DNA from: an uncultured bacterium
GTDB lineage: Bacteria; Actinomycetota; Acidimicrobiia; Spongiisociales; UBA5794
DNA length: 20,996 bases
Direction of reading: 5' to 3'
Assembly: GCA_963801165.1 (NCBI GenBank)
Contig: CAWDDT010000008.1
Coordinates: 1-20,996, forward strand
The notes below the pieces were generated by a model. It was not told the origin of the DNA. It was given only the letters and a program-made list of their open reading frames with translations, and did not search any database. Below, one piece after another: positions 87-20,996 of this stretch. Both the position numbers and the translations under genes were made by a program. How positions within the stretch are numbered: position 1 is the stretch's first letter; each line of letters begins with the position of its first letter.

Positions 87-128
87 AAAAAACCTAGAGC
101 CCTCGGGCGATTTCCACCTGAGGGCTCT
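87..128 (-). terminator. Intrinsic terminator-like hairpin downstream of tRNA 3' remnant
   Basis: AGAGCCCTCGGG (96-107) / CCTGAGGGCTCT (117-128) inverted repeat; A6 tract at 87-92 gives a U-tract on the minus strand; abuts the tRNA 3' end remnant. Confidence 0.75.
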
Positions 129-143
129 TCGTAGCGGGGGTAG
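128..143 (-). repeat. 16-bp tRNA-fMet 3' end remnant; left target-site duplication of the IS481 shell
   Basis: TTCGTAGCGGGGGTAG is identical to 6744-6759 and is immediately followed by the TGT IS end. Confidence 0.85.
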
Positions 144-218
144 TGTCGTGTTTCAGAACATAGGAAAGGTATGTCGCGGGACATAGGAACATCGGCTACG
201 CCCTGCTTGGGCGGGTCG

Positions 219-702
219 ATGTCGAAGGCACGTCTTGTCATCATGTCGGTTGTTGTCGAGGGCCGTTCCCAGGCGGATACGGCCCTCCTCTACGCGGTCT
301 CACCCGGCTGGGTATCGAAGCTGGTGGTCCGCTACCGCCTGGATGGGGATGCCGCGTTCGAGCCCAAGTCGCGGCGTCCCAAGACCTTCTCGAATGCCCT
401 AGATCCGGCAACTGTCGAGTTGATCGTCGAGCTGCGCCAACGCCGTGCCGGCGACGGTCTCGATTCCGGGCCGCACACGATTGCATGGCATCTCGAAAAA
501 GATCATTCGCTGGTGGTATCGCCAGCAACGATCTGGCGGCATCTCAAAGCTGCGGGACTGGCCACACCGCAGCCGAGGAAGCGTCCCAAAGCACCGTATG
601 TCAGGTTCCAAGCCGACCTACCCAACGAAATGTGGCAATCTGATTTCACCCACTGGCGCCTCGAAGACGGGACTGACGTTGAGGTCCTCGCCTTCATCGA
701 CT
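219..702 (+). pseudogene. IS481-family transposase, N-terminal part (HTH plus start of DDE core), truncated
   Basis: MSKARLVIMSVVVEGRS, HTH, SRRPK, GPHTIAWHL, PNEMWQSDFTHWRL; similarity ends at VLAFID, where DDHSR would be expected. Confidence 0.9.
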
Positions 703-744
703 ACCGACACGTCGCCGCGCTCTGGCACCGGCTGATGGGCGGTC

Positions 745-975
745 TGGCCGGCAGTGGATCGATTGGCATTTGACCACGGGCAGCGATCCGGTCCCTGAGT
801 ACAAGCGGGCAATCGGAACGGTGCATCTGAAGGACAAGTTCACTCACGCCGGTAGCGACCGACCTGATCGCGGCGCCGATAGTTGCGGAGTGTCCCATCA
901 CACTCGAGGCATCGGTGACAGCCATCCATCCGTTCCAATCCCACGACGCACATCTGGCGGTGATCGGGATCGGAC
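745..975 (+). pseudogene. Flavin reductase-family fragment, frameshifted
   Basis: Across frames: AVDRLA/LTTGSDPVPEYK...DKFTHAG/TPVATDLIAAPIVAECPITLEASV. Confidence 0.6.
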
Positions 976-1218
976 AGCGACGATCTGCTCCTGCTCGTGA
1001 ACGGCGTACTCGTGGTGAAGGTCGACGGCGAGCAGCTTGCTGAGGTCGGGCCAGGTGCCGTGCTCGGTGAACGTGCGCTGCTGGAGGGTGGGACCCGAAC
1101 CGCAACGCTGCGAGCGGTGACGGAGTGCAAGGTCGCCGCAGTGCCGGCGGACCAGGTCGACCGCGACAGGCTCGGCGTCGGCGGCCCTTCCGGGCCAACA
1201 GCAGCCGTACTCGCGTGA
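976..1218 (+). pseudogene. Cyclic nucleotide-binding domain C-terminal fragment
   Basis: LLVNGVLVVKVDGEQLAEVGPGAVLGERALLEGGTRTATLRAVTEC has the GE..R phosphate-binding cassette; no N-terminus. Confidence 0.7.
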
Positions 1219-1232
1219 ATTGTCGCACCGGT

Positions 1233-1259
1233 TGTCGATTTCGATGCGGCCGTTCGTAG
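1233..1259 (+). promoter_or_regulatory. Putative ECF sigma promoter (ECF42-like) for first DHFR-like gene
   Basis: TGTCGATTTCGA-N6-CGTTCGTAG; the same motif and spacing occur at 2435-2461. Confidence 0.6.
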
Positions 1260-1304
1260 TAGGGATAGACAGCGCATTCGGCGCTGCGAGAAGGAAGTTT
1301 AAGT

Positions 1305-1871
1305 ATGGGAAAGCTCATTGTTACCGAGTTCGTGTCTCTGGATGGGGTGATGCAGGCCCCGGGTGGTGAGGAATTCAAGTACGAGGCTTGGACGTTCGAC
1401 TTCGATCGTGGCGAGGACGGCAACCAGTTCAAGCTCGACGAGATCCTGGAAGCGGATGCCCACTTGCTCGGCCGTGTGACCTACGAGAGCTTCGCTGGAG
1501 CCTGGCCCAGTCGTGAGGGCCCGTTCGCCGAGAGGCTGAACAAGGATCCGAAGTACGTCGTGTCGACCACGCTCAAGAACCCCGAATGGACAAACGTGAC
1601 AGTCCTGGACAGCGGCGACGCCACCGCCCAGGTGGCGAAACTGAAGCAGGAGATCGACGGCACGATCCTGCTCGCCGGTAGCCGGCGGCTGGTCCAGGAA
1701 CTCCTGGGCGCCGATCTGGTCGACCAGATCAACTTGATGGTCTTCCCGGTCATCCTGGGCACGGGCGACCGAATGTTCGGCGAGATGAACGAAAAGACGA
1801 CGTGGAAGCTCGTCGAGTCGCGGCAGGTTGGATCCGACGGCGTTTTGGTGCAGAGCTACCGGCGCGCCTGA
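1305..1871 (+). CDS. Dihydrofolate reductase/RibD C-terminal family protein
   Basis: VSLDGVMQAPGG, LLGRVTYESFA, KYVVSTTL, GSRRLVQEL, LVDQINLMVFPVILGTG. Confidence 0.92.
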   Translation: MGKLIVTEFVSLDGVMQAPGGEEFKYEAWTFDFDRGEDGNQFKLDEILEADAHLLGRVTYESFAGAWPSREGPFAERLNKDPKYVVSTTLKNPEWTNVTVLDSGDATAQVAKLKQEIDGTILLAGSRRLVQELLGADLVDQINLMVFPVILGTGDRMFGEMNEKTTWKLVESRQVGSDGVLVQSYRRA

Positions 1872-2434
1872 GCGACGGGTCGGATCAGGACGGCCGATGC
1901 GCGGCTGCCGGGACATCTGCACCGAATCGATCGGGTCGGCCACTATGCGTTGGAGCCGCCGCGACTTGCGAACGTCGCCCTCGAGGCGAGCCAGCACCAC
2001 GTGACACCGACTTCAAGCGGTGCACGGGACTTCACGTCAACCCGACGCGCCGGTACCTCTCCCGACGCAAGTCGACAGGCTGGCCAAGCCCTACTGCCAT
2101 ACCGTCAGCGAACCGATGGCGAGGACGTGTCGAACTGCGGCTGGCGGAGATCGCAAGCGTCCGGTCCTGGTACTGGAGCTCTGTGATGTGCGCGCTTGCC
2201 ACGTGGTGCTCCGATCAACCGCCTGCGGCACCGAGACCTGCCCGGCCGGGCGCCATCACGGTGCCGGTTCGTTGATGCCGGTCCCGTTGTCCATGCCGCC
2301 GCCGCGGCGCGATGCGACGATCCCATCACTGTTGCGCCCACGCACCATCGGTTTCGGCCACATCGTCGGCTGGCTCGGTCGGTGTGTGTTTCCTCGTCGA
2401 CTGTCGATGTCGCAGGGGGCAGGCATGAATATGA

Positions 2435-2461
2435 TGTCGATTTCGACGGCGTCGTTCGTAG
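2435..2461 (+). promoter_or_regulatory. Putative ECF sigma promoter (ECF42-like) for second DHFR-like gene
   Basis: TGTCGATTTCGA-N6-CGTTCGTAG, matching 1233-1259. Confidence 0.6.
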
Positions 2462-2537
2462 AGAGGGCAGCGGGTTCACCTCGCCGCCGATCGGCGACAC
2501 CGGTTCGGCCCACGACTCACTCACGGAAGAGAGCATC

Positions 2538-3122
2538 ATGACCGCCACCTACACCTTCGATGTCTTTTGCAGCCTCGACGGCTTCGGAGCCGCTACCGGC
2601 GACTGGAGCGGCTATTGGGGTAAGCAAGGTCCCGAGCTGCTCGATCACCGTCTCGCCACCTATCGCCAGGACCAGCTCCTGGTTCTCGGGGCGAACACCT
2701 ACCGGCTTTTTGCCCAGCTACTGGCGGCGAGCACCGACGAGTCAGACGTGAGCGACCCGTGGGTCAAGCAGATGCGCAGCTTGCCGACAATGGTGGTGTC
2801 GAACACCCTGCCGCGACCGCTCGACGCGTGGCCGGACGCGACCATCGCTGCGGGTAACGCCCTCGACGTCGTCAGGCAACTCAAGGAACAGTCCACCACA
2901 CCGCTGCGGTCCCACGGCAGCTTGTCGATGAACCGGGCACTCATGTCCGCCGATCTGGTCGACGTCGTCCAGGTCACCGTCTTCCCGGTGATCACCGGCC
3001 GATCCGGCGTCGAGCCGATCTTCGAGGGCGCCGCCGACTTCGACCTCGAGCTGATCGAACAGCGAACCCTCGATGGGCACATACAAGAGCTGCTCTACCA
3101 CCCCACCCTCCACGAAGCCTGA
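2538..3122 (+). CDS. Dihydrofolate reductase/RibD C-terminal family protein
   Basis: Start moved to ATG 2538 (MTATYTFDVFCSLDG); GANTYR, VVSNTL, HGSLSMNRAL, VFPVITG. Confidence 0.9.
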   Translation: MTATYTFDVFCSLDGFGAATGDWSGYWGKQGPELLDHRLATYRQDQLLVLGANTYRLFAQLLAASTDESDVSDPWVKQMRSLPTMVVSNTLPRPLDAWPDATIAAGNALDVVRQLKEQSTTPLRSHGSLSMNRALMSADLVDVVQVTVFPVITGRSGVEPIFEGAADFDLELIEQRTLDGHIQELLYHPTLHEA

Positions 3123-3384
3123 TGGGTCAAGCCGCATTGATATCTGATGCTTAGGATCTATCGCACGTCAAAGGACTCGCCGGCAGCCAGCCGCACGCAC
3201 CCAGCGAAACGTTGGCAAGCAGCGCTACCGCGTTTTCGAGGCACCCCAAGTGCTCGAGCTCTTCACATAGTTAGAGCGTGCCCTCGCGAGCCCAACCGGC
3301 GACAGCGCAGCCGAACCACCGATCCGGCCGGTGCCAAGACGCTGAAATTGTGCGGAGGTTTCGGTCGTCCAAACAGCGATTCAG

Positions 3385-3538
3385 CGTAGGTAAACAACTC
3401 GGCCGTATCGAGACCGCGGGCAGCGTCGAAATCGTCCGATCGGGTGCCGACCTTCCATGCGGTGTAGCCGTCGTGCGCGGCGAGCCACTCGGCGATGTGC
3501 GACTCGAATGCCGCCTCGTCCGGATTCCATTCTGTCAC
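3385..3538 (-). pseudogene. hsdR: Type I restriction enzyme R subunit N-terminal fragment
   Basis: GTG start after a G-rich RBS; EAAFESHIAEWLAAHDGY...DFDAARGLDTAELFTY resembles HsdR N-termini; breaks off after about 50 codons; downstream of an hsdS remnant. Confidence 0.65.
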
Positions 3539-3633
3539 CCCCCTTGCTCCGATCAACTGGAATACCACACCTGGGGGCGAGCCGCCATTCCAGTAATCGC
3601 CGCATTTCTGGAATAGGACCTGGGGTGGATCGA

Positions 3634-4917
3634 TCATGTCCGGCCATTCTGGTCTGAAGGTAACCCGGTGCCACCCCACAACGCCGACACGGGGGTCGCC
3701 CAGATCCTGTCGTCGAGTTGGACCGTGAGCGGGCCCGTGTGAAACACCACGCCCGCAACCAACCGATCCCCAAGCCTGTCACGAAGGAATCTCAGCCCTT
3801 TGCCGTCGGATCGATTCACCGCTGCTGCCGACTTGACCTCGACAGCGACCACCGACCCGTCGGATCGTTCCACGACCAAGTCCACCTCGACGCCGGTCCG
3901 GTCCCGGAAATGCGCCAGAGCCAATGGTTCGTCGATCATGGCCGCTTGCTTGATCAGCTCCGTCACAACGAACGACTCGAGAAACGAGCCGCCCACCGGC
4001 ATCCGACCGAGACGAGCAGCATCAAAGCCCAGGACCGATGCCGCCAGACCGGTGTCCGTCACATGCAGCTTCGGCTTGCGGCCCACCCGGGCGGACAGCC
4101 CCACAGTCCAAGACGGGAGCTCATGAACCAGGTAGGTCCGGTCCAGCAGATCGAGGTAAGAGCGTGTCGTCTGCGGTTTCACGTCGAGGCGCCTTGCCAT
4201 TTCGGCCATCGTCACCACCGTTGCAGTCCGCTCAGCCGCCAACCGGTAGAGGCGGCTGATCGCCCCCGGGTTCCGGATATCAACGTGGGTCGGCAGATCC
4301 CGATCGGCCACCGTCGACACATAGCTTGCGAACCAGCGATGCCGGAGCCTCAGCGTTGGTCTCTCCAGAGCGCCGGGATACCCACCGGCGGCAACGAGCT
4401 CGAACACACCGTCACGATCCACCTCGGACCTCACATTTGGCGGCTCCCCGGCGTCGAGGGTCTCGGCGAGCCACTGGGTCGGCACTCCGAGCACCTCTCC
4501 GGCAGAAAGCGGCAACAAGGTGACTCGATTAACCCGCCCCGTCAGCGTCTCGGTGCCCGTAGGAAGCAGCCGACCACTCACAGAACCGGCCACCAGGAAC
4601 CTCGCCTGCCCACCTTGGCGGTCGACCACGCGTTTGACAACCGACAGGACACCCGGTGCGTATTGGAACTCGTCGATCACCACCAGATCCGATGAGACAA
4701 GCGGAGTAGTGGAGCCCTCCAAGATCGCCGCACGGGTCGGAAGATCGTCCAGATCCACTATCGCCACGCCATACTCAGCGGCAATCGCTCGAAGCACCGT
4801 CGACTTACCCGAACCACGAGGACCCTCGATCAAGACGGCCGGCTCCTCAGACACCAGCATCCGAATGTGAGCGTCCGCCAGACGGGGCACTATCCGTGAC
4901 AGTGCAATCAACACCAC
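3634..4917 (-). CDS. AAA_14 ATPase with DUF4143 and C-terminal PD-(D/E)xK-like domain
   Basis: Walker A GPRGSGKST, Walker B VVIDEFQ, AGS, LTGR, GGYP, KLHVTDTGL, EVDLVV...VAVEVK; exact start uncertain (4917/4914/4911). Confidence 0.9.
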   Translation of the reverse strand: MVLIALSRIVPRLADAHIRMLVSEEPAVLIEGPRGSGKSTVLRAIAAEYGVAIVDLDDLPTRAAILEGSTTPLVSSDLVVIDEFQYAPGVLSVVKRVVDRQGGQARFLVAGSVSGRLLPTGTETLTGRVNRVTLLPLSAGEVLGVPTQWLAETLDAGEPPNVRSEVDRDGVFELVAAGGYPGALERPTLRLRHRWFASYVSTVADRDLPTHVDIRNPGAISRLYRLAAERTATVVTMAEMARRLDVKPQTTRSYLDLLDRTYLVHELPSWTVGLSARVGRKPKLHVTDTGLAASVLGFDAARLGRMPVGGSFLESFVVTELIKQAAMIDEPLALAHFRDRTGVEVDLVVERSDGSVVAVEVKSAAAVNRSDGKGLRFLRDRLGDRLVAGVVFHTGPLTVQLDDRIWATPVSALWGGTGLPSDQNGRT

Positions 4918-4924
4918 TCCTCAG

Positions 4925-4989
4925 CCCTAGGGGCAGTTTCGCACACACCCTAGCGGCAGTTTCGCACACACCCTAGCGGCAGTTTCGCA
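4925..4989. repeat. 23-bp tandem repeat x2.8 directly upstream of the AAA-DUF4143 gene
   Basis: CCCTAG(G/C)GGCAGTTTCGCACACA at 4925-4947, 4948-4970, partial 4971-4989. Confidence 0.95.
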
Positions 4990-5119
4990 AGAGAGTCGAT
5001 GGCGCAGATCGGCCAGTAGCCCCGACAGACAGCGAAAACGTCCCGACCCAGACCGCGTTTTCGTCCCGCCGCCAACCGGCGGCAAGGTCTGCAACGCGAC
5101 TAGAACCATCCTTTGAGAA

Positions 5120-5641
5120 GTCGAGGTGACCGCATCTCCCCTCGTTGTCTCTTCCTGGTCAACCTCGGCCGGATCCAAGCCGACGGGTACCCACGCAAGG
5201 AGCTGCTCGTGATCCGAGTGGTCGGGTTGGCCAAGACCCCCAGCAGCTCGGCATAGCCTCCGGGACCGTCGCAGTCTTCGGGTGGGCAGGCTCGCCGGAC
5301 GGAATACTTGGCACCTTGCTCGAGGGCACTGATCGCGCCCCTAGCACGTCATGCTCCCAGCCGTCCCCGAAGTCGTAGTCCCACCGCATCTTCATCCCCA
5401 CATCGGGCAGCACATCTCCGAGCCGGACCCGGTTCTCGTCGAGATCGTCCGATGGCCACTCCGGCTCGGGGGTCCCGTACCGCCTTCGGTCCACCTCAAA
5501 GACGTGAAAGTGGCCACCCAGGCTCCCCATCGCTGCCTCCAACTCCCCTAGAGCTAGATGGGACTCGACGACGATCCGGCGCCACGCCGGCGGCTTCACC
5601 TGACGAAGCGTCACCCTCAACTGATGAACGGTCTCAGTCAT
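5120..5641 (-). pseudogene. Plasmid pRiA4b ORF-3 family protein, frameshifted
   Basis: QLRVTLRQVKPPAWRRIVV, HFHVF, YDFGDGWEH, then in another frame RACPPEDCDGPGGYAELL. Confidence 0.85.
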
Positions 5642-5659
5642 GACGGCTGTTCGGCGATC

Positions 5660-5900
5660 GTGTGCGCAAACGTCGAGCTCGCCGGTGACGGCGGTCGTGA
5701 TCAGCGCCTGCCGATGTTCGGCAAGTAGGTCGATCTGCTTCGCGAGCATCAATGTTGCGCGCTGACAGATTGAAGTCAGCTCATCGAGAATCCGGCGAGT
5801 CGAATCTGGACCTCGATGTCGTGCACAGGGATGGTGACTCGGCCCAGGTCCCAGATTCGCCAGGAGCGATGTCCATACGATTCGATCGATCTCGCACGCG
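5660..5900 (-). pseudogene. hsdS: Type I RM specificity subunit C-terminal fragment
   Basis: TIPVHDIEVQIRLAGF / LDE...QIDLLAEHRQALITTAVTGELDV across a frameshift matches the HsdS conserved C-terminal helix; 5' boundary approximate. Confidence 0.8.
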
Positions 5901-6035
5901 AGCCGCTCCCTGAGCCACGACGTGACCTCATCACAAGCCGTCCCCTCGCCAAGCGTGGCACTCCTGGGAGGGCCTCGCCGATGCAATGGACGTCCTCGCT
6001 CGGTTGCGGGTCGAGTGGCGTCCGGAGCTGCCGGC

Positions 6036-6467
6036 TCAAGCTGGTTCCAGCACGACGACCGGAATGGGTCGGTCTGTGACTGCCGCGTAACCGGCATAGT
6101 CGTCGGCAGCCTCAACGGCCTTTTGCCAGATCTCCTCGAACTCGGCACCGGCCGCGAAACGGGCCCTCACATCACTCCAGGTACCGTCGCGTCGGATGCG
6201 GGCGCCGGGGTGGGCACGGAGGTTTTTCACCCACGCCGGATCATAGGAAGCACCGGCGTTGGATCCGATGACCGCCGGTCCGCGAGCAGTACTCACGTAC
6301 CAGATCAGAATGCCTCTCTCCTGACCCGACCTGTGGCCGATCGTCACGAGCTCCAGGACCGGCATACCGCTGACACGCCGACCCAACCGCCCACCGGAGA
6401 GGTTCCAAACGAGCTTGTGGAGCCTCCACTGCATTCTCAGAAACCGACGCGACGAAGTACTGCTCAT
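6036..6467 (-). CDS. F420-dependent nitroreductase (Ddn/DUF385 family)
   Basis: PVLELVTIGHRSGQER, GSNAGA..DPAWVKNLRAHP, YAGYA..TDRPIPVVVLEP; start set at ATG 6467. Confidence 0.9.
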   Translation of the reverse strand: MSSTSSRRFLRMQWRLHKLVWNLSGGRLGRRVSGMPVLELVTIGHRSGQERGILIWYVSTARGPAVIGSNAGASYDPAWVKNLRAHPGARIRRDGTWSDVRARFAAGAEFEEIWQKAVEAADDYAGYAAVTDRPIPVVVLEPA

Positions 6468-6514
6468 GTAGACACGGTAGCGCCCCGCAACCCGCGGCGG
6501 CCTCAATCAACTGT

Positions 6515-6578
6515 GACCACTGGCCACCAACGGGCAGCAACATGGCCGCCACTAGGCAGAATCTCATGGCCGCCGACA
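6515..6578 (-). mobile_element. Orphan IS21-family terminal repeat region
   Basis: Minus strand TGTCGGCGGCCATGAGATTCTGCCTAGTGGCGGCCATGTTGCTGCCCGTTGGTGGCCA: TGT tip with reiterated GGCGGCCA..CTGCC units; no istA/istB. Confidence 0.7.
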
Positions 6579-6710
6579 GCGCAAGTGCTCATCAACGAAC
6601 TCGACATCCACATCATCAGCACCCAAACCGGCGAGATCATCCGCCACCTCACCCTCAACCCCAGCATCGATTACCAACCCCAACCACACAACAAAACCCC
6701 CAAACCATAG
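6579..6710 (+). pseudogene. IS481-family transposase C-terminal fragment
   Basis: VLINELDIHIISTQTGEIIRHLTLNPSIDYQP, typical tail of actinobacterial IS481 transposases; followed by the right IR. Confidence 0.8.
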
Positions 6711-6743
6711 GTTCAAGGGTTTCCAATGTCTCGCGACATCACA

Positions 6744-6789
<46 letters not shown>

Positions 6790-6801
6790 GAGTTTGGGGT
6801 G

Positions 6802-6914
6802 TTCGCTGAGCTGGGGAAACACGCGAAACGCCAATAAACACGGGCGCTATTGGTTCGCATCATTTCGCGTCATTTCCCGTCCTGTCCCATTCTCCCGCGC
6901 GATGGACGCGCGAT
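6802..6914. repeat. att arm region with 10-bp phased repeats and an 11-bp-period arm-like doublet
   Basis: TTCGCATCAT/TTCGCGTCAT/TTCCCGTCCT/GTCCCATTCT (6854-6893); CCGCGCGATGGACGCGCGAT (6895-6914) identical to 20908-20927; colinear similarity to 19381-19468. Confidence 0.7.
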
Positions 6915-6947
6915 CGGGGGAGCCAAGAAACCGGCGTGGGCCTCTTC

Positions 6948-6974
6948 CTCAGCTTGTCTCAGCTTCTCCACAGG
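6948..6974 (+). promoter_or_regulatory. Putative OmpR-family operator upstream of PepSY gene
   Basis: CTCAGC, CTCAGC, CACAGG at 10-11 bp spacing; same motif upstream of the response regulator. Confidence 0.5.
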
Positions 6975-7041
6975 CGGTTTGGAGCACGCTGTCGCCGAGA
7001 CGACCCCACAGGGGGGTCAACAGAGCCAGGAGGTTCTCCAC

Positions 7042-7713: not shown

Positions 7714-7741
7714 TCAGCTCAAACCCATCCTGCCACCTGGT

Positions 7742-7769
7742 AGCGCCGGACCCGGCTGGGTCCGGCGCT
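7742..7769. terminator. Hairpin between convergent genes
   Basis: AGCGCCGGACCC-GGCT-GGGTCCGGCGCT, perfect 12-bp stem. Confidence 0.7.
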
Positions 7770-7780
7770 GCTGTAGGCGG

Positions 7781-9864: not shown

Positions 9865-9922
9865 GGTCTACCCGTTTCCTTGTTCGTATCGGGGCCGCCC
9901 TGCCGGAACATACGTGCTGATT

Positions 9923-9940
9923 GCTGAGAACCAGCTGAGA
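9923..9940 (-). promoter_or_regulatory. Putative autoregulatory direct repeat
   Basis: TCTCAGC-N4-TCTCAGC (11-bp period) about 60 bp upstream of the regulator start. Confidence 0.55.
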
Positions 9941-9989
9941 GGCGGGACGTCGTGCCGCCCCGCTCTCGCAGTCGACCACGGCGATTGAC

Positions 9990-13301: not shown

Positions 13302-13450
13302 CGGCCCTCCTTGTGTCTCAGCACCGGCACTGCCGGTGGTCACGGCCCTGATTGACCGGCCCGCGACAAGCTACAAAACCGCCGTCAAGACATCGGACAG
13401 CGCAAGGTAAGAGGTTTGCCAGAAATGAGACCCGTTGAAACGACCGTCGA

Positions 13451-14761
13451 TCAGCGGGGTGGGTCGCCGCCCACATCGGCCCGTTGCAGGACCACATCGA
13501 TCTGGGGATGGGGACCGAGCCGGGTTACCGTGATGCGGCCCGGCATCGACTCGACTAGCCGCCTTGCCAGCTGGAGACCGAGACGTCTCGACCCACGACC
13601 ATCGACTGTTTCGCTTCCGTCCGAACCGAATGGCGCCACCGCGAACCCGGGACCCTCGTCACCAACCTGCAACGTCACCGACTCGTCATCGACCCGGACA
13701 TCGACCATCACCGCACCGGCACCATGCTCGAGGGCATTGGCAACCAACACATCGAGCACGTGCCGCAGCACCGCCGCGCTTCCCCGCACCGGCGGGACGA
13801 ACCGGGTCGATGTGACGCGCAGCGTTCGTCTTGCCCGATCGAACAACCGTCTCCAGCCCTCCTCCACCTCCCCCACCACATCTGACACATGGATCTCCGA
13901 GCGTGCAACCTGTGCCGTCCGAGCGAAGCCAAGCAGATCGGTGACGGTCTGCTCCAACCGATCGATGTCCCCGAGCGTATCCTCGAGTACCTGCGACCGG
14001 TCGGGCCGAGGAAAGGCCAACTCGGTCTCGATCGCCGCACGCATCCCCGCAAGCGGTGTGCGCAACTGATGTGACACATCAGCGGTGAACATCCGCTCCC
14101 GTGCGATCAGATCGTCCAACCGGTCGGCAGTCACCGTCATAGCCTGGCCGGCCTCATCCAGCTCGGCCACACCGCTTGCCGGCACGTCGATGGCGAAGTC
14201 GCCGTCGCCCAGCCGAACCGCGGCGTCTCGGAGACGCACCACCGGCCGAACCAGCCGACTGGCCACAAACCAGCCAACCCCTACAGCGATAGCGAGGACG
14301 CCGACAGCCAAACCGAGCAACCCCCAAAGGGCGCGGCTGGCGCGGGCGTCCCCGGCCGCGGTGGACTGCTCGGCCCGAACCGCGCCTACCACCTGCTCGT
14401 CGGCCGCCACCGGCACCGCCACCACCCTGGTTTCTCCCTCTTCGGTGTCCGCCACTTCGCTGTGTAGTGCCTTCGCGGTGACGGCATCCGCCCGCGACGG
14501 GCCCTCTCCTGCCCTCAGGACGCCCTTCGGGTCGTACAGGCCAAAAACCACACCCTCCGAAGACGCAGGCAGCTCGACAGGGTCGCCACTCGACGCAAAA
14601 TCGGCCGGTACCGCCCGGGACGCCAGCACCGCCTCCCGCTCAACCCGCAGCGTGGCGGACTCGTCCAACAATCGACCGATTACGACGGCAAGTGGTATGC
14701 CAAACAACACAACAGCCAGCACCGTCACCGCCAGAATCGCCACCAACACACGGCGTCTCAT
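13451..14761 (-). CDS. Sensor histidine kinase
   Basis: 2 TM, HAMP, DVSHQLRTPL, LVANALEHG, DEGPG; G2 box degenerate (RRLGL). Confidence 0.9.
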   Translation of the reverse strand: MRRRVLVAILAVTVLAVVLFGIPLAVVIGRLLDESATLRVEREAVLASRAVPADFASSGDPVELPASSEGVVFGLYDPKGVLRAGEGPSRADAVTAKALHSEVADTEEGETRVVAVPVAADEQVVGAVRAEQSTAAGDARASRALWGLLGLAVGVLAIAVGVGWFVASRLVRPVVRLRDAAVRLGDGDFAIDVPASGVAELDEAGQAMTVTADRLDDLIARERMFTADVSHQLRTPLAGMRAAIETELAFPRPDRSQVLEDTLGDIDRLEQTVTDLLGFARTAQVARSEIHVSDVVGEVEEGWRRLFDRARRTLRVTSTRFVPPVRGSAAVLRHVLDVLVANALEHGAGAVMVDVRVDDESVTLQVGDEGPGFAVAPFGSDGSETVDGRGSRRLGLQLARRLVESMPGRITVTRLGPHPQIDVVLQRADVGGDPPR

Positions 14762-15438
14762 GGCAGCTCGAGGCGGTACCCGACACCCCGCAGCGTCGAA
14801 ATACGGCTCGGCTCACCCAGAGCATCCAGCTTTCGCCGTAACGCCGCAATATGGAAATCGAGCGTCTTAGTCGACCCAAACCAATGCTCGTCCCAGACAT
14901 CGCTCATCAACGTCTCCCGCGTCACCACAACCCCAGCGTCCTCAGCTAAACGGACCAGCAGATCGAACTCCTTGGCTCGAAGCTCCACCTCCTCCCCCGC
15001 CAACCAGACCCGCCGCGCGGCAACGTCTATCACCAAACCACCCACCGACAGCCGCTCATGGTGTGTCGGCTCTCGCCGTCGCAGCTGGGCACGAACCCGA
15101 GCGAGCAACTCGGCAAGCTTGAACGGCTTCGCCACATAATCGACAGCACCCGCATCCAAACCCACCACCACATCCAACTCTTCATCACGAGCCGTCAACA
15201 TCACCACATCGATAGACGGATCCGCCTCATGAATACGACCACACACCTCGATCCCGTCAACATCCGGAAGCCCCAGATCCAGCAACACGAGATCCGGACG
15301 GCGAGCAGCCACAGCATCGAGCCCACCTCGACCGGTCTGCTCCCACACCGCGTCGAAACCACTCCCAACCAGGGCGCGCAACAACGACGAGCCGATCCGC
15401 TCGTCATCCTCCACAATCAGAATCCGGTTCCGGTCCAC
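14758..15438 (-). CDS. OmpR/PhoB-family response regulator
   Basis: ILIVEDD, LLDLGLPDVDG, GAVDYVAKPF, KTLDFHIAALRRK, TLRGVGY. Confidence 0.95.
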   Translation of the reverse strand: MDRNRILIVEDDERIGSSLLRALVGSGFDAVWEQTGRGGLDAVAARRPDLVLLDLGLPDVDGIEVCGRIHEADPSIDVVMLTARDEELDVVVGLDAGAVDYVAKPFKLAELLARVRAQLRRREPTHHERLSVGGLVIDVAARRVWLAGEEVELRAKEFDLLVRLAEDAGVVVTRETLMSDVWDEHWFGSTKTLDFHIAALRRKLDALGEPSRISTLRGVGYRLELP

Positions 15439-15762
15439 ACAACCAGGCTAGAGCCTCCCCTATCGGCAGCCGGCCACGACGGCGCTGGGACGCTGCTGCC
15501 CCGCTCCCCGGCGGGGATCTCAACGTGATAGCTCGAGCATTGAGCTACTCGCCACGCGTCTTTCAGTAGGGGTAGCAGCTGCAGGGAGATTCCGGCGAAG
15601 CCCAACACCGCCGAGCCCCCGAGATCGGTAATCACCGCACGCCCGGGTGATCGCTGCCTTCGGTGCGGGCGCACGCGTCATGCTCGAAGGCGTACAAGCA
15701 ACGCCTCGCATCGTTTCGCCCACCCCGCCACCCAACGTTGGACACATTGAGTGTCCCAGCGG

Positions 15763-15783
15763 CTTCTACCGATCCTTCTACCG
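15763..15783. repeat. Arm-type-like doublet upstream of integrase
   Basis: CTTCTACCG x2 (12-bp period); inverted relative to CGGTAGAA repeats at 17941-17982. Confidence 0.65.
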
Positions 15784-15818
15784 GGTTCCGAACGTCGGTA
15801 CCCGGGAAGGACAGGATC

Positions 15819-16238
15819 ATGAACGGCTATGTGGCAAGCGTGGGTGACCGTTGGTATGCGGTCATCTACGAGGGACTCGATCCGGTCACCGGAAAGGAGC
15901 GACGGCGCTGGCATCCCGCCGGCGAGAGCCGGGCCGACGCCGAACGGCTCGCCTCTGCCCTTGCTGAGAAGGTGAATGGCCGCAACAACCAGGTCCGGTC
16001 ACTCACCTTCGGGGCATGCCTGGCGACCCGGTGGTTGCCGGGCAAGAAACTGGAGGTGGCGCACAGCACCTGGGACGGGTCCGCCGCAAGTTCAATCTCC
16101 ACATTCTCCCGACACTGCGGAAGGTCCCGATCCGTCGCCTCTGACCCGACCACCTGGAACGACTCTACGACGACAAGCTCCACCGAAAGAACAGCAAGCG
16201 GCCGCTGGCACCCAAGACCGTCCTGGAGATATACCTCT
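15819..16238 (+). pseudogene. Tyrosine integrase N-terminus (arm-binding plus SAM-like), frameshifted and truncated
   Basis: RWYAVIYEGLDPVTGKERRRW...LTFG...WLP...STWDG; frameshift near 16080 to RRKFNLHILPTL..VPIRRL*PDHLERLY...LAPKTVLEI; TGA at 16142-16144; no catalytic domain. Confidence 0.88.
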
Positions 16239-16320
16239 TGCTCCCCCGCTGCCGCCGACAGCCGAAAGGCGACGTTGACGGCCAGGCCAGAGATGTCGCC
16301 ATTCTGGAACACCATCGGTG
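16230..16320 (-). pseudogene. Class III adenylate/guanylate cyclase fragment
   Basis: NGDISGLAVNVAFRLSAAAGEQEV has the G..VN.A.RL cyclase motif; about 30 codons only. Confidence 0.55.
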
Positions 16321-16362
16321 GAACCCACCGACTTTCCCCCAGCAAGCAGAGGGACGAAGGGG

Positions 16363-17028
16363 CTACATCGCCTCTTTGATACCTTGGCGGATCAGCCAGG
16401 CGTTGACCGGGTAGGCGGTGAGGAAGCCGGCGAGCATGGCGATCTGCATCATGAACCAGAAGGTGGGGGAGGTCTTGGAGAGCTCCTGGCCGAAGATGGC
16501 GAAGGTGGCGATGGCCATCCACCCGTACATGCCCACCTGCCAGGCGGTGAGGGAGGCGGTGTCTGCCTTGAACGCCGCTCCCAGGGCCTCCCGACGGGTT
16601 GCGTCTTTCCGCATGGGACGGATGGTGAAGTACTGGAAGGCGATCCCGAAGCCGAAGGCGGCGATGTAGTCGATCACCCACGATCCGAAGATGTGATGCC
16701 CGAACAGGGTGATCGGCACGAAGAACACGAACCACTCCGCCACCAGGTCGCCCAATGCACAGCCGCTCCCGCAGTGGGTGGCACCCAGGGCGGCGCTGCG
16801 CCACAGGGGCCGGTTGCCGACGGAGGAGCGTCTTCCGACATAGGCGGCCACGGCGAGCGGGCCGGCGTAGAGGGCGGTGAGTGGCCACACCAGTCCCATG
16901 ATCCAGGGCTGGAGTCCGCCCCGGCGTACAACGGCGATGGCCAGCCCAAGGGCGCACAGCCCGCACAGGACGAGCCAAAAAACGGCCAGGCTCGAAAGCC
17001 AGCCCGGAATCACTACGAGAAAGGTCAA
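16363..17028 (-). CDS. DUF4396 family membrane protein
   Basis: IMGLVWPLTALY, HCGSGCALGD, FGIAFQYFTI, KADTASL..WQVGMYGWM, FWFMMQIAM..GF.TAYPVN.WL...GIKEAM. Confidence 0.88.
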   Translation of the reverse strand: MTFLVVIPGWLSSLAVFWLVLCGLCALGLAIAVVRRGGLQPWIMGLVWPLTALYAGPLAVAAYVGRRSSVGNRPLWRSAALGATHCGSGCALGDLVAEWFVFFVPITLFGHHIFGSWVIDYIAAFGFGIAFQYFTIRPMRKDATRREALGAAFKADTASLTAWQVGMYGWMAIATFAIFGQELSKTSPTFWFMMQIAMLAGFLTAYPVNAWLIRQGIKEAM

Positions 17029-17471
17029 CTGGTCAGCTCGGGATCAATCAGGGTGAGGCCCGTCTCGCGGTCGTAACGCTTGCGGAGGTGGGCGGGAGTC
17101 TCGGTAACCATGACCTCAAGGGTCGGCCACACCTGGGCCGAGCAGAAGTGGCCGCCCATGGTGGATCCGTCCTTCTTGCCTACCACCAGGTGGGCGTGAA
17201 TCTCGGGCTGCGCGTCGGAGAGGGCGATGTCGCCCACCATCGACAGCACCTCGACCTGCTCGTCGACGAGGATCTCGTCGTAGTCCATGCGGTCGCGGTT
17301 GAGGTAGCCGAGGGTGGCCGAGGAAAAGGCGCCCACCGCGGTGAGCGAGGCGCCGCTGATCTGTTCCTCCCCGGCAAACCTCTGGAGTCCACTGTGGGGC
17401 TCGTCGCCCTTGTCGAAGATCACGGCGTAGGTGCGTAGGCCGGCTTCGGTGTTGAGCAGCGCAGTTTGCAT
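17025..17471 (-). CDS. PPC domain (DUF296) protein
   Basis: AVGAFSSATLGY, EVLSMVGDI, HAHLVVG..DG.TMGGH, VWPTLEV, D.ETGL.LI. Confidence 0.9.
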   Translation of the reverse strand: MQTALLNTEAGLRTYAVIFDKGDEPHSGLQRFAGEEQISGASLTAVGAFSSATLGYLNRDRMDYDEILVDEQVEVLSMVGDIALSDAQPEIHAHLVVGKKDGSTMGGHFCSAQVWPTLEVMVTETPAHLRKRYDRETGLTLIDPELTS

Positions 17472-17534
17472 GTCTGTCCTTCATGGCTCGGGATCAACAC
17501 CTACCCAAGTGCTGTGAGGGCGAAACGCCGCCGC

Positions 17535-17845
17535 TAAGCCGATACGCTTCTGGTGATGGGGACACAGATAGGTGGAGCGCCCCGGCACTTCGATCCTCTT
17601 CAGCCGGTGCCCGACCCGGGCACACTCGTGTTCCGGGACGCGGTGGAACCTAGCCAGTCGTCGGAGAAGCTGAACGGGTCGGCTCGGTCCCCCGCCTCGT
17701 CCACCACGTCATGCAGGTCTCGAACAGCTGCTGGGACAGGTCATCGTCCAGGGTGGTCGTGTCGGACCGGGGGTGGATCCCGGCCTGGAAGAGGATCTCG
17801 TCGACGCAGACGTTGCCCAGCCCGGCCAGCGCCTCCTGGTTGCCG
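17535..17845 (-). pseudogene. Fpg/Nei DNA glycosylase C-terminal fragment
   Basis: H2TH motif NQEALAGLGNVCVDEILFQAGIHP; in another frame zinc-finger remnant EC...GRSTYLCPHHQ. Confidence 0.8.
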
Positions 17846-17940
17846 CCACCCACATTGTTCATCTCTGCGTATCGTGCTGCCAGTTTCAGTATCACTTTCT
17901 CTCCCCCGCGCCCGCTTTTTCGAACAGCTGATCACCGGCG

Positions 17941-17982
17941 ACCGGTAGAAACACCGGTAGAAAACCCTTCGGGACGGTAGAA
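17941..17982. repeat. Arm-type-like repeats next to att
   Basis: ACCGGTAGAAA at 17941 and 17953 (12-bp period), CGGTAGAA at 17975. Confidence 0.7.
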
Positions 17983-18011
17983 GCCCCGGTCAGCACATCG
18001 CTGACCGGGGC
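17983..18011 (-). terminator. Hairpin downstream of tRNA 3' remnant
   Basis: GCCCCGGTCAGC-ACATC-GCTGACCGGGGC, perfect 12-bp stem. Confidence 0.75.
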
Positions 18012-18013
18012 AT

Positions 18014-18059
18014 TTCGTAGCGGGAGTGGGATTTGAGCCTACGACCTTCGGGTTGCGAG
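18014..18059 (-). repeat. Degenerate tRNA-fMet 3' half (att core)
   Basis: 41/46 identical to 6744-6789; T loop and anticodon mutated. Confidence 0.88.
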
Positions 18060-18184
18060 CCAGGCGAGGTGGTTTGTGTCGATTCCGCCATGTCCACCGT
18101 CGAGGCTTCCCGTTCACCGGGCGAGATCGTGTGCGCCGACGGTGTGCGCTCACCTTGTTGGAGGACGGTACCCTGCTCGAACCC

Positions 18185-19258
18185 ATGCAGTCTCGTACTC
18201 GCCTATCGATGGTGACCCTCCTCGCCTTTCTCTTCCTCACCGGTTGCGCCTCCTCGGACCCGGGGGTCGTGGGATCTACCACCGTGTCCACGACCACAAC
18301 ATCGGCATCGGTCCCGACATCGACGCCACCGTCCACCGTGGAGGCGACACCCGACACCGTGGCGGCACGGTCGGAGTTTCGTGTTATCGGGTACATCAAC
18401 ACGTGGGACCGATTTCCCGAGAGCATCGGGGACATCGATTTGTCGGCGCTCACCCAGATCAACATCGCCTTCGCCAATCCCGACGACCAAGGCGATCTCG
18501 GTCCTATCGAAGGACTCGACGAAGCCGTGTCGGCCATCCATGCGGCCGGACCTGACGTCGTCCTCTCCCTCGGTGGCGCCGACCTCGGGGGCTCGGAGGA
18601 CGCGTGGCGGCAGCTCACGGCACCTTCGAAGGTCGACGAGTTCTCCGACCGGATCGTGGCATATGCGATCGAGCACGATCTCGACGGCATCGACATCGAT
18701 CTGGAGGGAGACATCATCGGCGACCAATACGCCCCGTTCGTCGCCGCCCTGGCCGATCGTCTCCATGCTTACGACAAGACGGTGACGGCGGCTGTCGCCA
18801 CCTGGTTCATCAACCAGATCCCGCCGTCGACGTTTGCCGACTTCGACCACGTCAACATCATGTCATACGACGCCACCGGCCCATGGGATCCCGACCGGCC
18901 CGGACCACACTCGTCGTTCGAGATGGCCGTCTCCGACCTGGAGACGTGGATCGGGTACGGCCTCCCGGCCGAAAAGGCCGGCGTCGGCGTGCCGTTCTAC
19001 GGCTACGGGTTCGGTAGCTACGCATCCAAGCCCGAGTACTCCTATGCCGAAATCATCGCCGAGTACCCGGACGCAGCCGCACACGACCAGATCGGTACAG
19101 CCGCAAACGCCATCTACTACAACGGCCCTGACACGATTCGCGCCAAGACCGAGATGGCTCTCCGGCAGGCAGGCGGTGTGATGATCTGGCAGCTCACATC
19201 GGACGCGACCGGTGACGAGTCGCTCCTCGCAGTGATCACCTCAACCGTCAACGGATGA
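18185..19258 (+). CDS. GH18 (chitinase-like) glycosyl hydrolase, lipoprotein
   Basis: Lipobox LTGC, Thr/Ser linker, INIAFA, LSLGG, catalytic DGIDIDLE, NIMSYD, GVPFYG, GGVMIW. Confidence 0.93.
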   Translation: MQSRTRLSMVTLLAFLFLTGCASSDPGVVGSTTVSTTTTSASVPTSTPPSTVEATPDTVAARSEFRVIGYINTWDRFPESIGDIDLSALTQINIAFANPDDQGDLGPIEGLDEAVSAIHAAGPDVVLSLGGADLGGSEDAWRQLTAPSKVDEFSDRIVAYAIEHDLDGIDIDLEGDIIGDQYAPFVAALADRLHAYDKTVTAAVATWFINQIPPSTFADFDHVNIMSYDATGPWDPDRPGPHSSFEMAVSDLETWIGYGLPAEKAGVGVPFYGYGFGSYASKPEYSYAEIIAEYPDAAAHDQIGTAANAIYYNGPDTIRAKTEMALRQAGGVMIWQLTSDATGDESLLAVITSTVNG

Positions 19259-19339
19259 CCAACAGAGGCGCCGGACGCGCAGGCAACCGGCCCGACTTGC
19301 CAACCGCTCGCCCCACGGAAAGCACCCGGCTTCGGAGGA

Positions 19340-19364
19340 GAACCTACGACCTTCGGGTCATGAG
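19340..19364 (-). repeat. Short tRNA-fMet remnant (att core)
   Basis: GAACCTACGACCTTCGGGTCATGAG is 24/25 identical to 6765-6789. Confidence 0.85.
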
Positions 19365-19380
19365 ACCTGGGGTCATGGTT

Positions 19381-19480
19381 TCGCTGACCAGGCGAAATCC
19401 ACGAAACGCCTGTACAGAGTGCACTTTCGGTTCGCGTCATTTCGCGTTCTCGACCGTCCCATGTCCCCGGAATCGCGGTC
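19381..19480. repeat. att arm region homologous to 6803-6895
   Basis: Shared colinear blocks TCGCTGA, CGAAACGCC, GGTTCGC(A/G)TCATTTCGCGT, GTCCCAT. Confidence 0.75.
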
Positions 19481-19878
19481 TATCTCACTATCTCGTCGAG
19501 TTCGGCGATCAGCCGCCGAGGTGCCGTGAGCCGGTAAGACTCTTCGATCAGCTCAGCGACCTCGTCGAAGTCGGAGTCGGATTCGAGATCGAGGCCGAGC
19601 CAACCGGATGGGCCGAGATAGGCCGGCACCCAGAAGCGTGTGTCCGTCTCGAGTGCCGGCCGCTCCTGCGGGTCAGGGAGGAACACGACCGCGCGGTCAT
19701 GCCCGACCCACTCGTTTCCGACCCTCATCGAGCCGCCGTAGTAGACGAACACCTTGCGGGTGAAGAATGCGGGGCGGCCATGCGACTCCTTCTCCCCGGA
19801 CCCGGGAAAGGCGAGTGCGACCTCACGCACCCGGCTCAGGAGCGGGTCCTCCGGGTCGTACATCCGCGGGTGTGCCAT
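19480..19878 (-). CDS. MmcQ/YjbR family protein
   Basis: RVREVALAFPG..EK.SHGRPAF, RFWVPAYLGPSGWLGLDL, EVAELIEESYRLTAP. Confidence 0.9.
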   Translation of the reverse strand: MAHPRMYDPEDPLLSRVREVALAFPGSGEKESHGRPAFFTRKVFVYYGGSMRVGNEWVGHDRAVVFLPDPQERPALETDTRFWVPAYLGPSGWLGLDLESDSDFDEVAELIEESYRLTAPRRLIAELDEIVR

Positions 19879-20029
19879 CCGACGAGTATCGCTGCTGTCG
19901 TCAGACGGGGCAACACCCTGGCCGAGTCGACCTGGCTACCGGCGAAACGATCGACTGGCACAACGTTTGTGCGGTGGGTCATCTCCGGGTACCGAAGCTT
20001 CGGGCGAACAGCGGGGACCAACTGGGGCC

Positions 20030-20650
20030 ACCATCGACCATGGTCGCCACCACCGCGCCCGGGCTTCTACCCTGCCGGATGACACCGCCACTCCGACCAG
20101 CGCATCCGGCGGCAGACCATGCCGGGGGTAGGTGCTCGTGAAGGCCTCACCATCGGATGTGAGCACCCGGGGCGGCCAGAGCCTCTCGTACCCGATCTGG
20201 TCGTGCCTGCTCCGTTCGATGAGCGAGTGGTCGACCACCACCCCGGTCGCCACGACATCCCGGAACTCGGCGAAGTCGAGGAAGAACACGTCTTCCGGAT
20301 CCGAAAGCGCTCCGGCGTCGACGAGGCGCTCGGCCTCGGCCAGCAGGATGCTCCGGTAGATGTGGTACCGGCTGGCCATCCCCTACCTGGCGAACTCCCG
20401 GTACCCGATGAACGTGCGCAGCCGATCGATCATCATCTTGGTCTCGGTGGCCTTGCGATTCCCGTCCGGGAGAGTGCGCACTAGGGCGCGCACCTCGCGT
20501 TCGGCGGCTCGGCGGAGCCCCTGCTCGGATCGCCGGACGGCCTCACCCGGCTGGGAGTGGCGGACATGGCCCATGATCGCCTGGAGGAGCGCAGCGGGGT
20601 GCTCCGCCCACTGGCGGCGAGTGATGGCAATCTCGGCTATTCGGAGACAC
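20030..20650 (-). pseudogene. rph: Rifamycin phosphotransferase (PEP synthase-like) internal fragment
   Basis: EI.ITR..W.E.P, LPDG..KA.ETK.MIDR.RTFIGYRE, EAERLV.AG, PPRVLTSDGE, VSSGRVEARAR; in-frame TAG at 20383-20385; both ends missing. Confidence 0.8.
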
Positions 20651-20907
20651 CGGCCCGGAACGCGACGATCGCCGCCGAGCCGCATGAGGCCTCCGGGCTG
20701 CTCAGACCATCGTGGGGCACTGCGACGTGCGGTCGTAGAAGGCACACCGGGGAGACTGGGCATGTCGGACGCGAGCTGCTCCCATCCGCCTGATCCGGCT
20801 GGTCTCTGTGACGACTTCGGGCGACACGCCCGAAGTTGGGCACCGAAACTGTCAGGCACCAACCGGAGCCACGATGTCCATCATGAACCGAAACAGCACA
20901 TTGGCGT

Positions 20908-20927
20908 CCGCGCGATGGACGCGCGAT
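20908..20927. repeat. Arm-type-like doublet identical to 6895-6914
   Basis: CCGCGCGATGGACGCGCGAT, 20/20, same orientation. Confidence 0.8.
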
Positions 20928-20967
20928 ACGGGCAGATGTCACGCAACAAGCGGGAGGTCTAGGACGC

Positions 20968-20996
20968 CGAAACCCCTTGCAGTGCAAGGGGTTTCG
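20968..20996. terminator. Perfect hairpin at window end
   Basis: CGAAACCCCTTGC-AGT-GCAAGGGGTTTCG; ends in TTCG, the way the other tRNA remnants begin. Confidence 0.7.

Follow-up and report, generated by a model that had tools for sequence, protein, structure and literature searches.

The contig analysed here (C8; 20,996 bp), which in its entirety is referred to as the window, carries a co-oriented row of displaced 3' halves of the initiator tRNA gene (tRNA-fMet), and most probably represents what is left of several integrative islands that inserted into this gene successively, through tandem accretion and subsequent decay. Although densely packed, the array is an unexceptional instance of a process already known and reveals no new mechanism. 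It documents a tyrosine-integrase family of uncultured Acidimicrobiia-type bacteria that targets the initiator tRNA gene, and whose islands pile up often, with 18 of 40 related integrases facing a displaced half rather than the live gene. The finding aids the annotation of islands in metagenome bins, explains assembly breaks at tRNA-fMet in this group and identifies the tRNA-fMet locus as a place of accessory gene gain, shuffling and loss. The assembly to which the window belongs (G000; 4.55 Mb, 13 contigs, 64% G+C) resembles a metagenome bin (98% complete, 5.6% contamination), and was compared with the genomes of the relatives G003, G005 and G014; two unpublished genomes, G027 and G038, are the basis of no claim.

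Displaced tRNA-fMet halves, hairpins and arms

Copies of the tRNA were located with a repeat finder and by BLAST against the whole assembly. The 3' part of tRNA-fMet is present at four sites of the window, all on one strand, the sense of the tRNA being minus. The half at 6744-6789 (minus strand) comprises 46 nt, from the anticodon loop to the 3' trailer, and agrees at 46 of 46 positions with the intact genes plus trailer in G003 and G005, and at 41 of 41 with the assembly's own gene on contig C11. The second half, at 18014-18059 (minus strand), is diverged, with five changes in 46 nt and a destroyed anticodon (89% identity over 46 nt; BLAST aligns 41 nt at 92.7%), while the third (19340-19364, minus strand) retains 25 nt at 96% identity, from a strand of the T stem to the anticodon loop, and has lost both the acceptor part and half the T arm. 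The remaining copy, at 128-143 on the minus strand, consists of 16 nt of the tRNA 3' end (trailer, acceptor strand and the start of the T stem; 100% identity, E 0.029 when taken alone) and is considered below with the insertion that created it. As a first-pass annotation of the sequence had recognized, each of the three longer copies stops within the anticodon loop: their termini (...TTATGAG, ...TTGCGAG and ...TCATGAG) correspond to the CUCAUAA loop of the intact C11 gene. In the relatives the identity of the halves extends 5 nt further, into the anticodon stem. Neither ARAGORN nor Rfam, at the gathering score and at E values up to 1, reported a complete or partial tRNA in the window, as is to be expected if the copies are tRNA halves; the sole Rfam row, mir-598 (E 0.94), is a chance match.

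Each half, or the place where one is due, bears a strong hairpin. The terminator-like structure at 97-127 (minus strand; folding energy -36.6 kcal/mol, z -4.96) lies directly behind the tRNA 3' end, with a run of T after it in the minus-strand reading (the A run at 87-92 of the plus strand); flanks of this type recur beside halves in G005, G014 and on contig C7 of G000. The hairpin at 17983-18011 (minus strand; 12-bp stem), also directly behind the tRNA 3' end, is kept in G014 and in G003, where it stands next to an intact tRNA. The third, with a 13-bp stem (20968-20996, minus strand; folding z -5.38), occupies the very end of the contig. All three were revealed by folding and went unlisted in a scan for consensus terminators, because their tails are too poor in T for the rule of the scan.

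A fifth half begins directly after the last base of the window (20996), exactly where the contig ends. This follows from three observations: in G014 and G005 a tRNA-fMet half comes immediately after the corresponding hairpin, contigs from two independent sequencing runs continue past 20996 into the half, and the metagenome contig L013, which is 98.4% identical to the window over its last 127 nt, contains the hairpin, a 46-nt half and then another element arm. L013 was the sole contig found by a metagenome scan to carry the last 34 nt of the window, and shows a related organism, not G000.

The window also contains short repeats of the kind expected beside an integrase core site. CGGTAGAA occurs five times, against 0.25 expected, a number that 0 of 100 shuffles reached. 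Three direct copies (17943-17982, plus strand), presumed to be arm-type integrase binding sites, lie next to the hairpin of the 18014 half; four copies occupy the equivalent place in G003 and G014, and one to four are found behind most related integrases. Two further copies, inverted (15764-15783, minus strand), lie just upstream of the integrase start described below and are kept in G014 and G003. We infer that the repeats beside the core are bound by the integrase. The recurring unit of repeats, hairpin and tRNA 3' end that had been noticed in the sequence is present at 17943-18059. On its anticodon side the 6744 half adjoins an element-side arm of about 130 nt (arm A, 6790-6922), which holds TCATTTCGCG/TCATTTCCCG and CGCGATGGACGCGCGAT, can be aligned to two half-adjacent arms of G014, to one such arm of G005 and to an arm of G003, and has matches of 72-85% identity in several genomes of the order. 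Its diverged kin, arm A' (19365-19460), was recognized as repeat family D3 and by alignment. A second exact copy of CGCGATGGACGCGCGAT is located at 20911-20927 (plus strand), the two matches in the window comparing with 0.33 expected and with two reached by 3 of 100 shuffles.

An integrase pseudogene of a family linked to tRNA-fMet

The N-terminal part of a tyrosine integrase gene is preserved as a pseudogene at 15820-16235 (plus strand). Its first frame is identical to residues 17-110 of a 402-amino-acid (aa) integrase of G014 at 81 of 94 positions (86%); a 1-nt deletion near 16072 shifts the remainder into a second frame, which matches residues 94-165, and homology stops near 16232. At the DNA level 15756-16228 is 87% identical to the start of the gene in G014 and G003. 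The intact integrase of these relatives contains PF00589 and an N-terminal SAM-like domain (Phage_int_SAM_3). From 17909 onward homology to G003 and G014 returns, covering the three CGGTAGAA repeats, the hairpin and the half. The place of the rest of the integrase gene is taken by a segment with three open reading frames (ORFs) identified through Pfam and NCBIfam (16363-17895, minus strand): a DUF4396 gene (16363-17028, minus strand), a PCC-domain protein gene (17025-17471, minus strand) and an 81-aa Fpg/Nei H2TH fragment (17650-17895, minus strand; NCBIfam fpg, positions 169-209 of 276 only). The complete unit, in which the integrase is combined with CGGTAGAA repeats, a hairpin and the tRNA 3' end, adjoins the intact tRNA-fMet in G003; in G014 it adjoins a displaced half, and the other end of the element consists of a half and arm A. 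In both intact islands (L006, G014:C7, 14377-17276; L012, G003:C10, 6957-9167) an AbiEi/AbiEii pair, of toxin-antitoxin or abortive-infection type, lies directly upstream of the integrase.

The first-pass annotation stated that the window holds no intact integrase. This is correct, and for the integrase type in question it extends to the whole assembly, in which the best intact paralogue is 37% identical; the frameshifted pseudogene, however, had been overlooked. PF00589 has no match on C8, C3, C7 or C11, and the window has one integrase pseudogene, not one gene per island. Elsewhere in G000, coordinate comparison shows that 7 of the 20 PF00589 matches converge on a different tRNA gene, ending 140-206 nt away from its 3' terminus, an arrangement equal to that of the tRNA-fMet integrases.

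Species-representative genomes were scanned and yielded 69 loci with a relative of the G014 integrase. Those with at least 60% identity, the C terminus present and at least 250 nt of downstream sequence were retained (44 usable loci; 25 were set aside because identity was low, the C terminus was absent or the contig ended). A co-oriented tRNA-fMet 3' core lies 76-206 nt downstream of the integrase in 40 of the 44. An intact tRNA-Met(CAT) is present in 22 of these 40 and only a half in 18, with arm-A-like sequence after the half in 5 of the 18. Because 40 of 44 loci have the core and 18 face only a half, this integrase family is concluded to target tRNA-fMet, with frequent stacking behind it. 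Together with the pseudogene, its arm repeats and the intact gene of the relatives, this bears out the earlier proposal of repeated tyrosine-integrase integration at tRNA-fMet followed by decay. No free attP (attachment site) form of the element was found: searches with the G014 integrase returned three loci of at most 34% identity among the viral contigs of IMG/VR, and matches of at most 34% only in phage and plasmid collections.

Modules and arrays in related genomes

Stacked modules of about 11, 1.3 and 1.6 kb had been proposed for the window. The two short ones (18060-19364 and 19365-20996) do lie between halves, and hold no recombinase. The first contains a GH18 chitinase-like gene (18185-19258, plus strand; Pfam Glyco_hydro_18, 8.2e-29), whose start, signal-peptide-like, was chosen by reading the sequence. 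The second contains a YjbR-family gene (19480-19878, minus strand; Pfam) and two adjoining ORFs (19936-20862, minus strand), which represent C-terminal pieces of a phosphoenolpyruvate (PEP)-utilising/rifamycin-phosphotransferase-like protein and form a 5'-truncated, interrupted pseudogene (NCBIfam RIF_Ptrans_rph, positions 580-667 and 671-778 of 864, far under the cut-off). In G014, 40 nt stand in for most of this pseudogene, and sequencing run X3 shows that allele too. The joint of 20020 to 20857 in run X3, with 40 letters between, was considered as a product of excision and rejected, as it equals the G014 allele and comes from a relative.

The 11-kb module, by comparison, did not survive. 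Most of it is a block containing genes for a PepSY protein, two histidine kinases with response regulator and an ATP-binding cassette (ABC)-2 transporter (6948-15438; Pfam), which is collinear and 75-79% identical in G003, G005 and G014. In G005 and G014 this two-component/ABC block is located between Dak and major facilitator superfamily (MFS) genes, away from the tRNA-fMet arrays, and the idea that it is the cargo of a single island was rejected on that ground. Of these two flanking genes, only the MFS gene is found elsewhere in G000. In G003 a degenerate integrase start follows the block, as it does in the window. In this region of G003 (L010, G003:C13, 2900-3640) the degenerate start has CTACCG-type repeats and is followed by an apparent 3' part of a different tRNA; Phd/ParE and Arr-type rifampin ADP-ribosyltransferase genes lie nearby.

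In the right-hand part of the window, positions 18011-20155 are 98.9% identical in G005 (21 mismatches and 3 gaps in 2,148 nt) and positions 18114-20020 are 99.3% identical in G014 (14 mismatches in 1,907 nt). In G005 this near-identical block of about 2 kb includes the diverged half at 18014-18059; the GH18 gene, the 25-nt half, arm A', the YjbR gene and part of the pseudogene complete its contents. It is present in 3 of 133 genomes of the family, G000 included. Given this restricted distribution, and an identity of 99% next to a neighbouring block at 75-79%, the block is attributed to recent horizontal transfer. Its position varies: it lies on the far side of an integrase-bearing element in G014, on the tRNA side in the window, and among other neighbours in L013.

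The relatives have arrays of their own. G005 contains four co-oriented halves, 19-29 kb from its intact tRNA-fMet, and G014 contains four co-oriented halves and then a contig end. As the first-pass annotation had anticipated, there is variation between relatives at the level of modules: the arrays of G005 and G014 differ in both content and order, and content differs strongly between related species. A 31-nt core is matched by 86 of 121 family genomes, and by our own count of the table 35 of the 121 have at least two copies, which are often co-oriented on one contig or located at contig ends. With respect to decay and REARRANGEMENT, the window has pieces of five genes, encoding the integrase, a transposase, the Fpg-like protein, a Fic-domain protein and the PEP-utilising/rifamycin-phosphotransferase-like (rph-like) protein.

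An IS481-family-bounded insertion explains the copy at 128

The copy at 128 was originally listed with the three longer remnants as one of four co-oriented att sites. The other three stand, whereas this one does not represent an independent att scar. The 16 nt TTCGTAGCGGGGGTAG lie flush at both ends of the segment 144-6743, 128-143 being identical to 6744-6759, and the segment starts with TGTCGTG and finishes with CATCACA, its ends matching at 16 of 25 positions (imperfect inverted repeats). The left end (144-773, plus strand) is that of an insertion sequence (IS) of the IS481 family with a truncated transposase (NCBIfam transpos_IS481, 5.5e-28, positions 5-155 of 284, below the cut-off). The ORF at 171-773 (200 aa) encodes helix-turn-helix (HTH) domains (Pfam HTH_32 and HTH_28) and only the first residues of the DDE domain, ending soon after the first catalytic motif; there is no intact DDE transposase. 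The right end (6597-6743, plus strand) contains the final codons of the transposase frame together with the terminal repeat ...CATCACA. The literature records IS481-family members that have TGT...ACA ends and generate duplications of about 15-17 bp (PMC10045372). Taking these described duplications together with the 16-nt flanks and the TGT...ACA ends, the 128 copy is the target-site duplication of a 6.6-kb insertion, bounded by IS481-family ends, into the 6744 half, and not a separate att site. Removal of 144-6743 restores the hairpin and a complete half. The window element is like the IS481 family in its termini, in the HTH N terminus and DDE transposase and in its long target duplication (16 nt), and differs in that the transposase is cut off after the first residues of the catalytic domain, that about 5.8 kb of unrelated genes lie between the ends, and that it sits within an integrase att site.

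At two loci, 6743/6744 in the window and 15209/15210 on C7, the right end directly meets the 3' terminus of a half, and these loci are 76% identical over 189 nt; the segment 6597-6743 is itself 76% identical to this second junction of IS end and tRNA half (C7 15069-15250). Elements of the IS1202 subclass or type reportedly, to go by a preprint title (bioRxiv 10.1101/2022.12.17.520857), abut or target Xer sites. This suggests that relatives of the window IS may seek recombinase sites.

Proposed history of the array and alternative explanations

We propose that each island would have brought an attP in which a private copy of the final 46-51 nt of tRNA-fMet was joined to a terminator hairpin behind it, and that a phage-type tyrosine integrase would have exchanged strands in the anticodon stem-loop. 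The tRNA gene would in this way be rebuilt from the copy of the island, while the earlier 3' half was displaced to the island's far end, and repeated rounds would generate a co-oriented row of halves. The one recognizable integrase gene would then have been frameshifted and lost its catalytic part, a segment bounded by IS481-family ends would have entered the outermost half and duplicated 16 nt, deletions would have reduced the cargo to gene fragments, and recombination at halves may have shuffled modules and dispersed pieces of the array over the chromosome. Where the crossover took place, what the repeats do and in which order these events occurred are deductions from the sequence arrangement, as is the probable immobility of the array in G000 today.

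It should be emphasized that several observations do not sit easily with this history. The outermost half (6744) is perfect and divergence is greatest in the inner one at 18014, which inverts a simple order of age. The two-component/ABC block is ordinary chromosome in G005 and G014, so at least one rearrangement of a non-integrative kind has to be assumed. The left edge of the 99% block is the tRNA 3' end of the 18014 half and not the anticodon loop, and its right edges (20155 in G005, 20020 in G014) fall within the pseudogene; with edges off the crossover sites, the block did not simply move from att site to att site. The end of C11, which carries the intact tRNA gene, shares no sequence with the end of the window, and its 4 kb contain no integrase. 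The halves on C7 and C5 require extra rearrangements, which are supported for the C7 case only, and 4 of the 44 related integrase loci are without a tRNA-fMet core.

It could be argued that the small integrase-less modules (GH18, 1.3 kb; YjbR and fragment, 1.6 kb) are still mobile, with an integrase that acts in trans or comes from a neighbouring element cutting them out in circular form and placing them at any other tRNA-fMet half, which would make the array a tRNA-anchored cassette or cis-mobilizable element (CIME) platform exchanged between species. The near-identical block, at 98.9% (G005) and 99.3% (G014) against 75-79% for the neighbouring conserved block, its presence in only three genomes and its different array places in these and L013 favour such mobility, as do the arm A' that the YjbR module retains at one end with a motif and hairpin at the other, the intact integrase of matching type in G014 and the frequency of accretion, 18 of 40 related integrases facing a displaced half. 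We nevertheless consider this unlikely, since the edges of the block are off the expected crossover sites, with the right ones inside a pseudogene, no cognate integrase is present in an assembly that is 98% complete, and the modules contain broken genes. A broader version, in which the tRNA-fMet locus of Acidimicrobiia-like bacteria would be an open docking platform where the integrases of co-resident or incoming islands move arm-hairpin-half modules between species as cassettes, is also doubtful, and we would give it little weight; were it true, it would explain why the 2-kb chitinase/YjbR block is 99% identical in three species at a different array position in each. The evidence for cassette mobility consists solely of this block and its changing position, and trans-mobilisation of integrase-less modules is unsupported. 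No excision joint or empty site between the window halves was found in the Logan contigs of four runs (covering 1000-20996), a search that is uninformative on absence because contigs drop rare variants.

That the contig is an assembly chimera, in which reads of co-occurring related species were merged at the repeated tRNA half so that the array as drawn would exist in no single cell, is very improbable. G000 does look like a metagenome bin with 5.6% contamination, the right-hand 2 kb of the window is 99% identical to two other species, and overlapping or alternative contigs occur. Positions 1-1164 of the window are the reverse complement of C3 1-1164 (99.9%), so C3 extends the window sequence leftwards; C2 and C3, and C12 and C5, are further pairs. 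The critical joint of CGGTAGAA arm, diverged half and GH18 gene, however, is bridged by independent short-read contigs of other runs (X3 record 23 spans 17758-18811 with four differences, and X2 record 15 spans 15769-18043), depth over the window is even in four runs except in the bin with the conserved tRNA part, and a 46-nt repeat is short, an unlikely size for a misjoin. Hardly credible, finally, is the view that the tRNA halves were spread by an IS481-like element, or are its specific target, instead of being the work of integrases. It draws on the right IS end adjoining the 3' end of a half both in the window and on C7, and on the 16-nt duplication that flanks the IS-bounded segment; but among the halves of the genome, about 10 in number, just 2 are in contact with an IS end, the transposase gene is present once and in truncated form, and the association of integrase and arms accounts for 40 of the 44 related loci. 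Successive integration followed by decay thus remains our preferred explanation of the window.

Comparison with known systems

Islands in tRNA genes are described as restoring the gene and leaving a displaced fragment, and tandem arrays of them occur (PMC4383910). According to that report, the arrays in the Islander collection resemble the window in the rebuilt tRNA gene, the co-oriented displaced 3' fragment, the anticodon-centred class of crossover, and the presence of several islands per tDNA, to which the intact units of the relatives, with integrase beside the tRNA end, also conform. Islander, as set out there, requires an integrase in each member before it scores an array, and gives 3,919 islands, with 125 tandems of at least two and 4 of at least three (PMC4383910). 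The window is unlike these arrays in having at least five halves in 21 kb, a single integrase pseudogene and an intact tRNA on another contig.

Decay to att-flanked elements without an integrase, followed by accretion, has also been described (PMC5704250). In the account of the ICESt1-related elements of Streptococcus given in that source, CIMEs have lost integration and transfer genes and kept the flanking att sites, and site-specific accretion generates composite tandem structures (PMC5704250). The modules of the window are similarly att-flanked and devoid of integrase and transfer genes. They differ from CIMEs in that no conjugation or mobilisation genes were seen in the window, mobilisation in cis or in trans being only putative here; in their target, tRNA-fMet in an Acidimicrobiia-like genome; and in the damage to their att sites, one of which is reduced to 25 nt, one changed at 5 of 46 positions and one split by the IS.

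The first-pass annotation had also entertained an integron-like array, and this part of its interpretation fails. The window shares with integrons a co-oriented row of recombination sites between short modules, and a tyrosine recombinase. Unlike integrons, it has no intI/attI platform, its sites are tRNA halves with arms and not folded attC sites, and its modules, of 1.3-11 kb, are multi-gene, run on both strands and contain fragments and pseudogenes. Moreover, the G014 integrase reaches 33.6 and 37.2 bits on integron-integrase models, for which the cut-offs are 265 and 435. The array is not integron-like.

The intact tRNA gene and halves elsewhere in the genome

The sole initiator-type tRNA-Met of the assembly lies on C11 (G000:C11, complement of 4064-4138), 4 kb from the left end of the contig and in the orientation expected were C11 situated to the right of the window. 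This live tRNA (L003, G000:C11, 3950-4140) has G, not A, directly after acceptor position 72, and is without the hairpin found behind every other copy; identity to the other copies stops right there. A DUF3644 gene (L003:3025-3978, minus strand) comes after it. It would appear that the native 3' trailer of the live gene has been replaced by something.

The remnants extend beyond a single array, as BLAST across the whole assembly located four further halves on C7 (12-29 kb) and one on C5. In the C7 region DUF4386 precedes MarR, as in the outer portion of the G005 and G014 arrays, with which it also has short stretches at 72% identity. Rightward of the last C7 half comes core sequence that in G014 lies about 220 kb from the array, which is indicative of a chromosomal rearrangement at one of the halves. 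The half on C5 (region 547134-548292) is lone, diverged (87%) and on the opposite strand, and some 1 kb from it is a short piece of an integrase gene of the type described above. Near it are genes for an F420H2 quinone reductase-like protein, a PEP-utilising enzyme and a LuxR-type ATPase, kinds of gene found in the window too.

The small contigs and contig ends of G000 repeat sequence of larger contigs at 78-100% identity (C2/C3, C12/C5, C5/C9 and C10/C6). Thus, C2 18372-30085 duplicates C3 14755-25652, the two contigs being 90-98% identical, and C9 1-400 equals C5 658784-659183. The assembly contains overlapping ends and alternative strain versions.

Genes between the IS ends

The genes at 1305-6506 are cargo or filler between the two IS ends. 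Two RibD_C genes (1305-1871 and 2196-3122, plus strand; Pfam) are followed by the 3' relic of a gene (3168-3345) that was recognized by sequence comparison, being 75% identical to C7 28694-28869 and 74% identical to the 3' end of a G014 ORF (L006:5743-7011) with Fic domains in its N-terminal half. Further genes identified through Pfam encode an AAA_14/DUF4143 ATPase (3634-4917, minus strand), a PRiA4_ORF3 protein (5159-6148, minus strand) and an F420H2-dependent quinone reductase-like protein (6036-6506, minus strand). Directly upstream of the ATPase gene are three tandem 23-nt repeats (4925-4993; repeat family D4), consisting of CCCTAGGGGCAGTTTCGCACACA and variants.

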